In this document: piece by piece, positions 4,445 through 14,516 of the stretch
Layout: the number at the start of each line of letters is the position of its first letter
How positions within the stretch are numbered: the first letter of the stretch is position 1
Made by a program: the position numbers and the translations under genes
From: an uncultured virus (IMG/VR IMGVR_UViG_3300028393_000048)
Lineage: Duplodnaviria; Heunggongvirae; Uroviricota; Caudoviricetes
Reading direction: 5' to 3' (one strand)
Virus record (IMG/VR): IMGVR_UViG_3300028393_000048
Span: 1-64,000 of that record
Length of the DNA: 64,000 bases
Notes under the pieces: generated by a model
Seen by the model: only the letters and a program-made list of their open reading frames with translations
Told to the model about the DNA's origin: nothing
The model's database searches: none

Positions 4445-4895
4445 GGGGGCGTAATAGATTCGACTTAATCGTTGAAAACTATATATGCAAGCAGTAGTTG
4501 ATCTGTGGCTACTTTAAAACGGATTAAAAAATAAACGCAAAGGCAATAACCAATGCAGTTGAAGCAGTCAAGTCATTCGTGACAAATGCAGCAGAGTCTC
4601 TCTTCGGAAACGAAGATGAGCTTTGCCTCATGGCAGCATAAACACCACAATCCTGATCCTATTAGGGGTAGTGGAATAACAATAGGTTTTAGTGGGTCTT
4701 GTGACACTAGTAAAAGAGTGCAAGCGGTGGTATGTGGTCGTTAATCACGCATACAGGTAGGTCTCTAAACATAGATAGGTTGGCAAAGCCTAGTTACCTT
4801 TAGACAACGAAAGTACGAATTTTGTCAAAGCTTGTATCGAATATATAGTTACCAATATTAAGGACAGGGAGGGCAGTTCTCCCTCGCCTCCACCA
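4445..4895 (+). ncRNA. ssrA: tmRNA, one-piece; tag frame 4537-4641
   Basis: 5' GGGGGCGTAATAGATTCGAC, 3' CGCCTCCACCA with G3:U70; resume context ataaac|GCA; tag ends LMAA-stop. Confidence 0.93.
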
Positions 4896-4899
4896 TTTC

Positions 4900-4972
<73 letters not shown>

Positions 4973-6079: not shown

Positions 6080-6910
6080 ATGAACATTATAGCTATTGGT
6101 GATATCCATAATCATTGGGTAGAAGCTGAAGAAATTGCATCATTGTATGATAAGACTCATACTGTAGTTTTTACTGGTGATTACTTTGATGATTTCGGTG
6201 ATACCGCCAATGATGCAATTCAGACTGCTCGTTGGCTAAAAGAATCGCTTGATAAACCCAATCGTATTCATTTGATGGGGAATCACGATATCAATTATTC
6301 GTATTTAAATTATAGCAAGGATGAAAGTGGTCATATTCAGAACATATACAATTGTTCTGGTTATGATATGAAGAAAGATGATGTCATCAATCGTGTTATG
6401 GATCAACAAGCATGGGATAAAATTAAGTTTGCACATCTTGGTAACGGCGTATGGTTTACCCATGCTGGTATTCATCCAACTTGGTTTGAACACCCCATTA
6501 AAGGTATGAGTAATGAAGTTATCATTGATAAGATTGCAAAGGCTACAGATGATTACCTTAATCGTACATGGAACGAAACCATTGGTGCTGTAGGTCGTTG
6601 TCGTGGTGGTGTGCAAAAGGTTGGTGGAATACTTTGGTGTGATGACTTTCAAGAAGGTCACGTTACTAGAGGATTACGTCAAGTTTATGGACACACCCCC
6701 ACGATGGGTAAAATTAATACTTGGTATGAAAACGGAGGGTTGAATGCCAACATTGATTGTGGTCTACATCAGGTTCTTGAGATTGATGAAGATGGAAGCT
6801 GTGCAGCTATTGATACTGGGCTTCCTAATTTCTATCTTGAGGCACAAGAAAAAAGAAATAAGAAGGCAAAAGAAAATATTGACAAACTTATAAAGTTTGG
6901 TGTATTCTAA
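6080..6910 (+). CDS. Calcineurin-like metallophosphoesterase
   Basis: GDIH, GDYFD, GNHD, THAG, GHTP motifs. Confidence 0.9.
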   Translation: MNIIAIGDIHNHWVEAEEIASLYDKTHTVVFTGDYFDDFGDTANDAIQTARWLKESLDKPNRIHLMGNHDINYSYLNYSKDESGHIQNIYNCSGYDMKKDDVINRVMDQQAWDKIKFAHLGNGVWFTHAGIHPTWFEHPIKGMSNEVIIDKIAKATDDYLNRTWNETIGAVGRCRGGVQKVGGILWCDDFQEGHVTRGLRQVYGHTPTMGKINTWYENGGLNANIDCGLHQVLEIDEDGSCAAIDTGLPNFYLEAQEKRNKKAKENIDKLIKFGVF

Positions 6911-7841: not shown

Positions 7842-8068
7842 AAGTAAAAGAACTAATAGAACAACTTCAAAAATTTGATCCAGAACAAATTGTTGTTGTT
7901 GATGGATATGAAACTGGATTTGATGAAGTCCACCATGTACAATATATTGCTGGACTTAAAAAGTTACCAGATGATAAAGCTTATTATGATGGAGAGTATG
8001 ATAAAGCACCAACTATGGCTTGGTTGCAAGATATGGTTAATGCTGTATATCTTCCTCGTTCTTCATGA
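7838..8068 (+). CDS. Small phage protein (MKVKELIEQLQKFDP type)
   Basis: Common phage N-terminus; ATGA overlaps on both sides. Confidence 0.7.
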   Translation: MKVKELIEQLQKFDPEQIVVVDGYETGFDEVHHVQYIAGLKKLPDDKAYYDGEYDKAPTMAWLQDMVNAVYLPRSS

Positions 8069-8487
8069 AAGGTATAGTCTCGTTTGACTTTGATGACACT
8101 TTGGCATCAATGACGGAAGAAAAGCAAGGACTTCTTTGGGGAATTGTTAGTGATGAACTTGTTCCCATCAAGGACGTTATTGATATTTTAATGGAAAAAC
8201 ATAATGAAGGATATGAAATTCATATTGTTACTGCTCGTGAGGAATGGGCTATTCCAGAAGTTAAGAGTTTTGTATATAACTATCAGCTTCCTATCAAAGA
8301 AATTCATTATACCTCTGGTGGTTCAAAATTACCAATTTTAAAAAAAATCAAAAGCGTTCTACATGTTGATGATATTCTTCATCATGTAGTTGCTGCCGAA
8401 TTAGAAGGAATTCCTTGTCTATTAGTTGATGATGGAAGACATAAAAATAATTGTACTGCTGATCAATTTAATAAAATTTTGATTTGA
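8065..8487 (+). CDS. HAD-superfamily phosphatase/nucleotidase
   Basis: SFDFDDTL, IVTAR, K, HVDD motifs. Confidence 0.8.
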   Translation: MKGIVSFDFDDTLASMTEEKQGLLWGIVSDELVPIKDVIDILMEKHNEGYEIHIVTAREEWAIPEVKSFVYNYQLPIKEIHYTSGGSKLPILKKIKSVLHVDDILHHVVAAELEGIPCLLVDDGRHKNNCTADQFNKILI

Positions 8488-8521: not shown

Positions 8522-8758
8522 ATGAAAAACACAAATACAACCGTACAGGTAAACGTAAAGTTAGATAATTTTTATGTAACTTTCAGACAATCACCAGACA
8601 ATCACGATTGGACTGAAATGTTCACTACTGATATTTGTCCTAGTCACATGGATACAAATCGTAGACCAATACATTTTATGTCTTTTGAGAGTCATGAACT
8701 AGATTCAATCATTAATGCTTTGACAGCTTATAGGGATACTGTTACAGTATTAACCTAA
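8522..8758 (+). CDS. Hypothetical protein, paralogue of 13636..13872
   Basis: 78 aa; 56/78 identical by manual alignment. Confidence 0.8.
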   Translation: MKNTNTTVQVNVKLDNFYVTFRQSPDNHDWTEMFTTDICPSHMDTNRRPIHFMSFESHELDSIINALTAYRDTVTVLT

Positions 8759-8764
8759 ACAATT

Positions 8765-8879
8765 TGACTAGGGTGCGAGTTCTTATAAGCTAAAGAACTT
8801 CCGCAACAGGTGATAGCGAAGCATAGTATACGATGAACGTGTAGCCTGTCCGAATTACCACAAAAGTAGTTCCTAGTCA
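8765..8879 (+). ncRNA. Candidate multi-stem structured RNA, unknown class
   Basis: Closing stem TGACTAG/CTAGTCA enclosing three arms; G:U pairs favour the + strand. Confidence 0.6.
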
Positions 8880-8894
8880 TCAACTTTTAAAAAT

Positions 8895-9227
8895 ATGAAT
8901 AAACAATCATTTGAAAAAATAATCCTAAACCTTCAAGCTGCTCGTTTGAGATCTCGTGAGATGTATAAACTTGGAGTTGATCTCATGCAGTACGAAGAGA
9001 ACTATGAACATGTAATTACTGAACTTTTTACAGCAGCATTTAATACAGATCAACTTGAGTGGATTGATTGGTATCTTTATGAGAGAGAAAGTCCTAATGG
9101 CAAGATTCTTAAAGCACACAAGAAAGTTGGTAGAAAGAAAGTAGAGATTTGCCACACTATTGATTCTTTATGGGAAACAGTTCATGATGCAGGACATCCT
9201 AAAAAAATTGACCCTAATAGAATATGA
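8895..9227 (+). CDS. Hypothetical protein
   Basis: 110 aa with WIDWYLYE motif. Confidence 0.65.
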   Translation: MNKQSFEKIILNLQAARLRSREMYKLGVDLMQYEENYEHVITELFTAAFNTDQLEWIDWYLYERESPNGKILKAHKKVGRKKVEICHTIDSLWETVHDAGHPKKIDPNRI

Positions 9228-13646: not shown

Positions 13647-13872
13647 AAATACAAGCGTACAAGTAAATGTAAAATTGGATGAATTCCTTGTTACATTTAA
13701 ACAATCACCAGACAATTATGATTGGACTGAAATGACATATACTGATATAAATGTTGGTCACTTTGATGCTAATCGTAGACCTAAATCATTTATGACTTTT
13801 GAGAATACAGAACTAGATTCTATTATTAAAGCATTGACAGCATATAGAGATACTGTTAAGATGCTTGGATGA
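13636..13872 (+). CDS. Hypothetical protein, paralogue of 8522..8758
   Basis: Same length, ~72% identity. Confidence 0.8.
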   Translation: MKNKNTSVQVNVKLDEFLVTFKQSPDNYDWTEMTYTDINVGHFDANRRPKSFMTFENTELDSIIKALTAYRDTVKMLG

Positions 13873-14516
13873 AAAATATATTCCTGATTGCAGATCTCCA
13901 CTTTGGGGACTCAGACATGGTCAGTCTTGTTAAAGAGGATGGACATCCTATGCGTCCATTTAAAAGCGTAGAGGAGCATGATGCTACCTTGATTGAGAAC
14001 TGGAACAAGGTTGTTACTCATCCAAGTGACAAAATATATATTCTTGGTGATGTGGCTCAGAAAAGAAAAGATATTGAGAACTTCGGTAAACTCAATGGTA
14101 AGAAGATTCTTATCAAGGGAAACCACGACATCTATGAGATGAAAGAGTATGCAAAGTATTTCAAAGATATTCGTGCAACTCATCGTTTGGATAATGGTAT
14201 TCTCATGAGTCACATCCCTGTGCATCCTAGTACCTTTGGTAATGCTCATAAGATCAATGTTCATGGTCATATACACGACAAGAAAGTATATCGAACCGCA
14301 AGATATCCCGATTTAGATAGTAGATGGGAAGAATATGTATACAAGAATGAGATTGATCCAAGATACTTCTGTGTCTCCTGTGAGCATATCAACTATACTC
14401 CTATGGAGCTTGGAGCTATTGAATTAGAAATATTTGGATTTGGAGAGAATTATCATCGTGAAGAAACTTTAAATGAATTGACAAAGCAAGCTCAAGAGCT
14501 TAATATGGGATACTAA
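13869..14516 (+). CDS. Calcineurin-like phosphoesterase
   Basis: ADLHFG, LGDV, GNHD, SHIP, HGHIH motifs. Confidence 0.9.
   Translation: MKNIFLIADLHFGDSDMVSLVKEDGHPMRPFKSVEEHDATLIENWNKVVTHPSDKIYILGDVAQKRKDIENFGKLNGKKILIKGNHDIYEMKEYAKYFKDIRATHRLDNGILMSHIPVHPSTFGNAHKINVHGHIHDKKVYRTARYPDLDSRWEEYVYKNEIDPRYFCVSCEHINYTPMELGAIELEIFGFGENYHREETLNELTKQAQELNMGY

Follow-up and report, generated by a model that had tools for sequence, protein, structure and literature searches.

GOLLD and ROOL (Rfam families RF01998 and RF03087) are pseudoknot-rich RNAs that phages and prophages encode, often near tRNA islands, and their lengths range from about 580 to over 800 nt. Both form RNA-only homo-oligomers held together in part by symmetric kissing loops, which were inferred from covariation of palindromic loops, and their function is unknown (PMC12286853). 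One such RNA, GOLLD env-38, lies 3′ of a Met-tRNA (PMC12286853). The argument from palindrome covariation was used by Kretsch et al. (2025) for the L9.3 kissing loop of OLE and the L21a kissing loop of GOLLD, and the homo-oligomers of OLE and GOLLD were then seen by cryo-EM (PMC12286853). A short RNA of cyanobacteria-infecting phages, manA, has recently been reported to self-assemble through intermolecular kissing loops and GNRA contacts (bioRxiv 10.64898/2026.07.01.735769). In phage T4 the tRNA cluster holds two further RNAs on the tRNA strand, rnaC (species 1, 139 nt) and rnaD (species 2, 119 nt); rnaD starts 1 nt after tRNA-Arg, and rnaC has a multi-branch fold that is closed by its own ends. 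The function of both is still unknown (PMC9697503).

The RNA element described here lies in a window of 64,000 nt, the whole stretch of DNA that was analyzed, which comprises positions 1 to 64,000 of IMG/VR record IMGVR_UViG_3300028393_000048. The source record is 76 kb long, has a CheckV completeness of 35% and is a tailed-phage fragment that encodes a tail sheath, a large terminase, a ribonucleotide reductase, a DnaB-type helicase and a UvsX-like recombinase. The sequencing runs that contain the window DNA are labelled freshwater or lake metagenomes. The element occupies 115 nt between two ORFs and folds into a four-way junction made of a closing helix and three arms. Its parts and neighbors are, in order of position:

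8522–8758, + strand: upstream ORF, 78 aa, no family match
8720–8748, + strand: promoter-like TTGACA-17-TACAGT inside the end of that ORF, a consensus match only
8765–8879, + strand: whole element, four-way junction, from fold, homologs and covariation (covariance model R1, 113.5 bits, E 8e-31)
8765–8772, + strand: 5′ strand of P1, UGACUAGG, pairing with 8872–8879; seven pairs are common to the whole family
8774–8805, + strand: P2 arm, UGCG/CGCA (8774–8777/8802–8805) and AGUUCUU/AAGAACU (8778–8784/8793–8799)
8785–8792 and 8800–8801, + strand: loop L2, AUAAGCUA, and bulge UC of P2, from the alignment
8788–8791, + strand: palindromic tetranucleotide AGCU in L2 with an A on either side, read by eye
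8806–8849, + strand: P3 arm, with outer helix ACAGG/CCUGU (8806–8810/8845–8849), internal loop and terminal hairpin
8811–8821, + strand: 5′ strand of the P3 internal loop, UGAUAGCGAAG, identical in 28 of 29 variants
8822–8835, + strand: terminal hairpin of P3, CAUAG-UAUA-CGAUG, with GUAUAC at 8826–8831 as a 6-nt palindrome
8836–8844, + strand: 3′ strand of the P3 internal loop, AACGUGUAG, identical in 29 of 29 variants
8850–8852, + strand: junction J3/4, CCG (AAG or AGG in the other subfamily)
8853–8871, + strand: P4 arm, AAUUAC/GUAGUU (8853–8858/8866–8871) with the 7-nt loop CACAAAA
8872–8879, + strand: 3′ strand of P1, CCUAGUCA, from the family parse and covariation
8895–9227, + strand: downstream ORF, 110 aa, no family match, 15 related loci

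A structured RNA at 8765–8879 had been proposed in an earlier note made from the sequence, and the folding energies agree with it. The + strand has a minimum free energy of −35.0 kcal/mol (z −3.39), for which none of 200 shuffles was equally good, and the − strand folds more weakly (z −1.91, 8 of 200 shuffles equally good). The GC-rich island seen by the same reader is present, with a G+C content of 0.425 in 8760–8879 against about 0.21–0.39 in neighboring 120-nt windows, and its statements that a U-tract is absent and that the element ends 15 nt before an ATG, at 8895, were correct. Helices P1, P2 and P4 and the outer helix of P3 are upheld by the homologs described below. The proposed inner hairpin TATACG/CGTGTA had to be replaced: the homologs covary as the terminal hairpin listed above, and CGUGUA is part of the 3′ strand of the internal loop, which does not vary in the variant set.

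No family of Rfam 15 (4227 models) matches the element at its gathering score, nor at E ≤ 0.5 over the whole window. When positions 8650–9000 were searched at E ≤ 10, the sole match was DPB at 8889–8942 (−), outside the element (16.5 bits, E 6.8), and at E ≤ 0.1 nothing was found over the element in six loci of the second subfamily. Both ARAGORN and RF00005 find four tRNAs at other places in the window but call none at 8765–8879; these four and a tmRNA are the only Rfam matches in the scans of the whole window. Core 14–15-mers were not found in the literature searched. An IMG/VR catalogue lists 8,495 unnamed candidate RNAs (PMC10690425), and the motif may be among them; in those of its supplements that were searched, neither the core nor any of six contig numbers occurs.

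Homologs were collected by scanning for exact patterns taken from both conserved strands of the P3 internal loop. The scans gave 18, then 19 loci in viral records and 41 loci in metagenomes, of which model R1 matches 29 (E ≤ 1e-26) and does not match 12. The same kind of scan of 185,579 cellular species genomes gave five loci, all in coding DNA and none matched by R1, which shows only the absence of the exact core. A model-based search of related records added one further type, in L102 and L243, in which a U replaces one core G. With a looser pattern at least 80 loci were found; among the matches listed, 9 of 80 match R1, all of them already known. A second looser pattern gained a single record, L243, whose type is that of L102. 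Blastn searches of GenBank phages, with the region or the element as query, returned only two chance matches (E 4). In total the family comprises 21 viral records besides that of the window and 29 metagenome contigs, which together give 29 distinct variants; the locus counts are not independent because many metagenome contigs are the same assemblies. The carriers are a group of uncultured freshwater tailed phages of 140–226 kb. Copy number is one in each of G000, G003 (140 kb), G006 (226 kb), G007 (199 kb), G009 and G010 (154 kb), including all four records that are at least 90% complete. Five other related records, four of them less than 75% complete, have no copy, and the multiple copies that a MITE-like element would show were not seen in these eleven records. 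In run X1 the summed contig depth over window positions 8781–8854 is 2–3 times that of the flanks, and in X8 it is higher still; in both runs several contigs start or stop inside the element with different flanks. The depth excess and these contig ends indicate that co-occurring phages share the element and that assemblies break there.

Covariation was measured on a model-fitted alignment of 29 variants and 29 pairs (841 cells), and the helices of the variants were also parsed separately, with the conserved core as anchor. Standard pairs occupy 97.7% of the cells, against 88.5% in shuffles, and 15 of the 29 pairs change on both sides; none of 500 shuffles reached the observed values. In a control in which the partners were slid by 1–3 columns pairing fell to 26–35%, and RNAalifold recovered the same helices from a plain MAFFT alignment. 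P1 shows double compensatory changes at four of its seven positions and occurs in three fully compensated versions, UGACUAG/CUAGUCA, UGCUGGG/CCCAGCA and UGGAUAG/CUAUCCA. In P2 the columns 10/42 are CG in 17 variants and UA in 10, and columns 17/33 are UA in 17 and CG in 12. The outer helix of P3 varies at position 2 (CG 15, UA 11, UG 3) and position 4 (GC 27, AU 2), while pairs of its terminal stem are AU 24/CG 5, UA 10/CG 12/UG 7 and GC 19/CG 9. The third pair of P4, judged by eye, is U-G, G-U or A-U. The sole departure in the 5′ strand of the internal loop is the model-found type in L102 and L243, in which the last G is U; the near-invariance of this core is partly due to construction, because the search patterns fixed it.

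Over the 29 variants the alignment contains 88 G·U cells and two C·A cells, and the RNA is therefore read from the + strand. The earlier note had named two G:U pairs that work only on this strand; it was right about the strand, and such pairs number more than two. Wherever tRNAs are nearby, the element is on the tRNA strand. Variant lengths range from 110 to 133 nt and differ by single bases, not by multiples of three, which excludes a coding function. The element is thus a real, well-supported structured RNA family without an Rfam name, and the suggestion of a novel phage non-coding RNA holds in view of the tailed-phage genes, the lack of an Rfam match and the strong covariation.

The variants fall into two subfamilies, labels that we introduce here for a short and a long form of P4. 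Subfamily 1, to which the window belongs, has a P4 of 6–7 bp with a 7-nt loop. In subfamily 2 P4 is longer, about 12 bp, contains an AAU bulge and ends in a GAAA tetraloop, and its inner stem covaries by eye as CGU/GCG, CGC/GUG, CAC/GUG and CUC/GAG. The genomic settings of the two were compared. Of 19 subfamily-2 loci, 15 have a tRNA or tmRNA gene no more than 1 kb away on the strand of the element, and in the other four ARAGORN finds no tRNA at this distance. L063, L075 and L092 have tRNA-Met directly upstream, with the element beginning 4 nt past it. Among nine subfamily-1 loci none has a tRNA within 1 kb. The window contains four tRNAs and one tmRNA at 2.5–5 kb (Rfam, ARAGORN), which share the strand of the element; the last tRNA on its 5′ side ends at 4972, 3.8 kb upstream. 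The tmRNA, at 4445–4895 (+; 451 nt, 84.9 bits in Rfam), lies between tRNA-Val and tRNA-Ala. It is missed by ARAGORN, which does call the related tmRNA of L059; the tag of the latter, EAEYIFNHADQFCMEEDMLLAA, is unusually long. Weak hits at 6080–6910, 8065–8487 and 13869–14516, located from the tRNA/tmRNA region up to the element or slightly past it, are to two calcineurin-like phosphoesterases and a small HAD or PNK-phosphatase-like protein. A link of these genes to RNA end-healing is possible; no ligase was found among the neighboring ORFs.

On the 3′ side the tRNA islands of subfamily 2 contain further non-coding sequence. A conserved stretch of about 230 nt follows the element in L063 (674–909, +), L077 (1080–1306, +), L097 (728–955, −) and eight more loci. 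Nothing in Rfam matches it at E ≤ 0.1, and 14 of its 47 predicted pairs covary among 11 sequences. It opens with a covarying hairpin that is CUCUCUAG/CUAGAGAG in some and UCCCACG/CGUGGGA in others. The stretch behaves as a separate module, because L076 has an insert of about 110 nt before it and L066 and L087 lack it; it is probably another structured RNA without a name. The whole 404-nt non-coding stretch 3′ of the subfamily-2 element has no counterpart in the record of the window, which is 35% complete. Twister-P1 matches were also found in the islands, placed between the element and tRNA-Trp. In L066 such a match, at 1087–1166, starts 8 nt past the element (35.5 bits, E 1.7e-6). Further ones, which come after the 230-nt stretch (E 3e-6 to 0.06), lie at L063:910–973, L076:1415–1484, L077:1307–1383 and L097:658–727 (−). 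All are below the gathering score of 67.2, with 25.8–40.7 bits and E from 1.7e-6 to 0.06, and the Rfam scan gave no twister match in the window. These sequences may represent a divergent twister lineage that releases neighboring RNAs.

Compared with the systems described above, the element shares with GOLLD and ROOL a phage origin and, in subfamily 2, the proximity of tRNA genes. However, those RNAs are five to seven times larger than the 115–125 nt of the element, which has one four-way junction and is not matched by their models; moreover, their observed oligomers contrast with the putative oligomerization of the element, which its sequence suggests. In context and size the closest RNAs are rnaC and rnaD of T4. 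Yet model R1 has no match at E ≤ 10 in the corresponding T4 region (L100, 68000–76000), the T4 RNAs lie in a tRNA cluster whereas the copy in the window is outside any, and rnaC has a canonical tRNA T-arm which the element lacks. The GAAA tetraloop of subfamily 2 recalls the GNRA contacts of manA, but manA pairs different loops, whereas the loops of the element are self-complementary, and the Rfam manA model does not match. With tRNA itself the element shares a four-way junction, a 7-bp closing stem (P1 has 7–8 bp), short linkers of about 1, 0, 3 and 0 nt and the location in tRNA islands; it differs in its much longer arms and the absence of D-loop, T-loop and anticodon-loop features. On present comparisons the element fits best as a variant among the phage tRNA-island RNAs, one that carries a putative signature of self-association.

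This signature resides in the hairpin loops. The P3 tetraloop, L3, is UAUA in 7 variants, UGCA in 13 and GGCC in 9, and is a palindrome in all 29. The three states interchange by complementary changes at loop positions 1/4 and 2/3, which cannot pair within one hairpin. Together with the closing pair the loop reads GUAUAC, GUGCAC or CGGCCG, and the position flanking this hexamer is an A·G or A·A mismatch in 16 of 29 variants, so that L3 can be read as an 8-nt loop with a 6-nt self-complementary sequence. The dimerization initiation site of HIV-1, part of a retroviral packaging signal, has a loop with a 6-nt palindrome and unpaired purine flanks, one natural version being GUGCAC. The same hexamer occurs in 13 of the 29 variants of the element; its origin is unrelated, and the likeness serves as a lead only. 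L2 is A-AGCU-A in 23 variants, A-UGCA-A in 4 and A-CGCA-A in 2, the last non-palindromic, a pattern with one compensated switch and one exception. For L3 the probability of the pattern by chance is below 1e-3 by rough hand arithmetic (1/16 times about 0.11 for each of two double changes), which assumes independent events.

Covariation between palindromes, the loop criterion of the GOLLD and ROOL type, is thus seen in L3 across the 29 variants, and L2 has AGCU or UGCA in 27 of them. A nearest-neighbor calculation for the window RNA gives −80.0 kcal/mol for the intermolecular duplex against twice −34.2 kcal/mol for the monomer, although any palindrome would do so. Alternatively, L2 (GCUA) might form a pseudoknot with UAGC of the core; this would suit only 23 of the 29 variants and lacks compensatory changes, so the palindrome reading is the better fit. 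Two reservations concern the origin of the pattern: neutral quasi-palindrome correction of replicating DNA could generate palindromic loops, and just two events may lie behind the three L3 states in a narrow, closely related family. The loop sequences suggest that copies of the element stick to one another, with a signature of symmetric loop–loop pairing in at least one loop and probably two.

In view of the above, the element is most likely a free-standing processed RNA and not a gene-specific regulator. The RNA alone is constant among contexts, which points to a free-standing, trans-acting molecule and counts against a leader of a particular gene. The reading that we prefer, with moderate confidence, is a processed RNA of about 115–125 nt that acts in trans and would pair with itself through L3 and probably L2; we infer processing, trans action and self-association from the contexts and loops described. 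Each phage genome would hold one gene copy for this structured RNA, which would be cut from longer transcripts. In the tRNA-island subfamily the 5′ side would be made by the tRNA-processing machinery and, in some phages, the 3′ side released by the twister-like ribozyme. In the subfamily of the window the RNA would come from a nearby promoter or from read-through. Its working parts would be the P3 internal loop and the self-complementary hairpin loops. Since the linkers resemble those of tRNA, P1 should stack on P4 and P2 on P3, which would place L2 and L3 at opposite ends of one rod. Copies could then pair as a kissing-loop dimer, a strand-exchanged dimer or longer assemblies, and the invariant P3 internal loop would supply an extra contact or a binding site. 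A bolder and rather doubtful extension is that of a minimal self-assembling RNA, in which the palindromes of L2 and L3 would join copies head-to-head and tail-to-tail into RNA-only filaments or closed assemblies. In function it would correspond, at a smaller size, to the cages of GOLLD and ROOL; like them it would arise in phage tRNA islands, and tRNA processing together with a twister ribozyme would free it. With such self-assembly the distinct palindromes GUAUAC, GUGCAC and CGGCCG would stop mixing between the RNAs of co-infecting phages.

Four other explanations have to be weighed against this self-pairing, trans-acting RNA. The element could be a monomeric protein-binding RNA or a tRNA mimic that binds a host or phage protein via the P3 internal loop, with the palindromes being incidental. 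It could then be a decoy, a cofactor or a punctuation-like substrate for RNase P or RNase E. The tRNA-like junction linkers, the position 4 nt after tRNA-Met in three loci, the tRNAs and tmRNA on the same strand upstream in the window, the precedent of the stable RNAs rnaC and rnaD beside tRNA-Arg in the T4 cluster, and the non-varying asymmetric internal loop, typical of a binding site, would all be consistent with such a role. However, neither ARAGORN nor the Rfam tRNA model recognizes the element as a tRNA, and it lacks the T-loop and D-loop consensus, unlike rnaC with its CCGGGUUCGAAUCCCGG. No conserved neighboring protein gene is seen either; a search of the neighboring ORFs with Pfam and PHROGs did not find RNA-binding, ligase or nuclease partners. 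The explanation also leaves the L3 palindrome in 29 of 29 variants unaccounted for, and we regard it as unlikely.

A cis-acting leader, that is a riboswitch or another translational or transcriptional control element of the gene 15 nt downstream, is suggested by the arrangement in the window. At least physically the element is in the mRNA leader of ORF 8895–9227, since there is no terminator, the ATG follows after 15 nt and no promoter lies in between. An ATG within about 15–17 nt, past a conserved A/U-rich spacer, is found in 8 of 12 subfamily-1 contexts. Promoter-like TTGACA or TTGACC, 17 nt and TAnnnT occur 15–16 nt upstream in 5 of the 12, including the window, where the site ends 16 nt before the element. 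A conserved internal loop amid variable helices is also aptamer-like. The genes, however, do not stay with the element. Flanking genes vary on both sides among subfamily-1 phages: the 110-aa gene of the window is replaced by other ORFs in L023 and L032, and of the 15 viral loci with relatives of the 110-aa protein only three have the element upstream. For the upstream 78-aa protein a peptide-pattern search gave no related loci; the coding sequence of its C-terminal end recurs 5′ of the element in L002, L003, L032 and L090. In L011, L088 and L095 a U-run directly follows P1 and a new promoter-like site precedes the next gene, and in subfamily 2 what comes after the element is non-coding RNA and tRNAs instead of an ORF. 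No alternative pairing involving the start region was seen, and a constant place before one gene family together with an expression platform, as expected of a riboswitch, was not found in the contexts compared. The cis-regulator offered by the earlier note is accordingly disfavored, and we consider it quite improbable.

Some further observations concern transcription around the element. In L084, L088 and L095 a perfect G+C-rich palindrome, CGGCGCC-G-GGCGCCG, which resembles a terminator stem without a T-run, lies about 10 nt 5′ of the element. One metatranscriptome run contains 0.14 of the sampled words of the window; its contigs cover 8543–8727 and 8892–8924 and not the element, which bears neither way on expression. 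A promoter inside the element starting from TTGACT was rejected, as its distance to any −10-like hexamer differs from one subfamily to the other. An antitermination RNA of the processive put type is unlikely in view of the subfamily-2 copies, which are located well within tRNA islands.

A self-cleaving ribozyme of a new class, or a processing element that separates the RNAs of a polycistronic transcript, would explain the conserved unpaired nucleotides within covarying helices, which are typical of ribozymes. The neighboring tRNAs and twister-like sequences mark places where processing happens, and phages commonly carry small ribozymes. However, the element matches no known ribozyme family even at E ≤ 10, and the cores of hammerhead, twister, twister-sister, hatchet, pistol, hairpin and HDV ribozymes have no match over it. 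A candidate cleavage site cannot be named, and self-cleavage would be redundant in L066, where the twister-like sequence follows directly. We regard a ribozyme as improbable. Least of all do we expect an element that works as DNA, whether a palindromic site for protein binding or a small mobile element whose terminal inverted repeats would be TGACTAG...CTAGTCA: P1 does resemble such repeats, the P3 hairpin is a near-perfect DNA palindrome, and the element takes differing positions in related phages with contigs of co-occurring phages breaking at it, but the excess of G·U over C·A cells places the pairing on one strand only, the − strand folds worse, there is a single copy per genome, and compensatory changes extend across four separate helices.

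Structured RNAs that phages encode beside their tRNA genes, such as T4 rnaC and rnaD, GOLLD and ROOL, have gone unexplained for decades, and the recent findings on RNA-only assembly have made them a live topic. The family described here marks a non-coding region of freshwater phages that contains two further features, a probable second structured RNA without a name and a possible divergent twister. The element itself is small enough for easy synthesis and mutation, and its secondary structure is well supported. If it does not self-associate, it is still a new, well-supported family for Rfam. If it does, it would be a tractable model for the role of such RNAs during infection.
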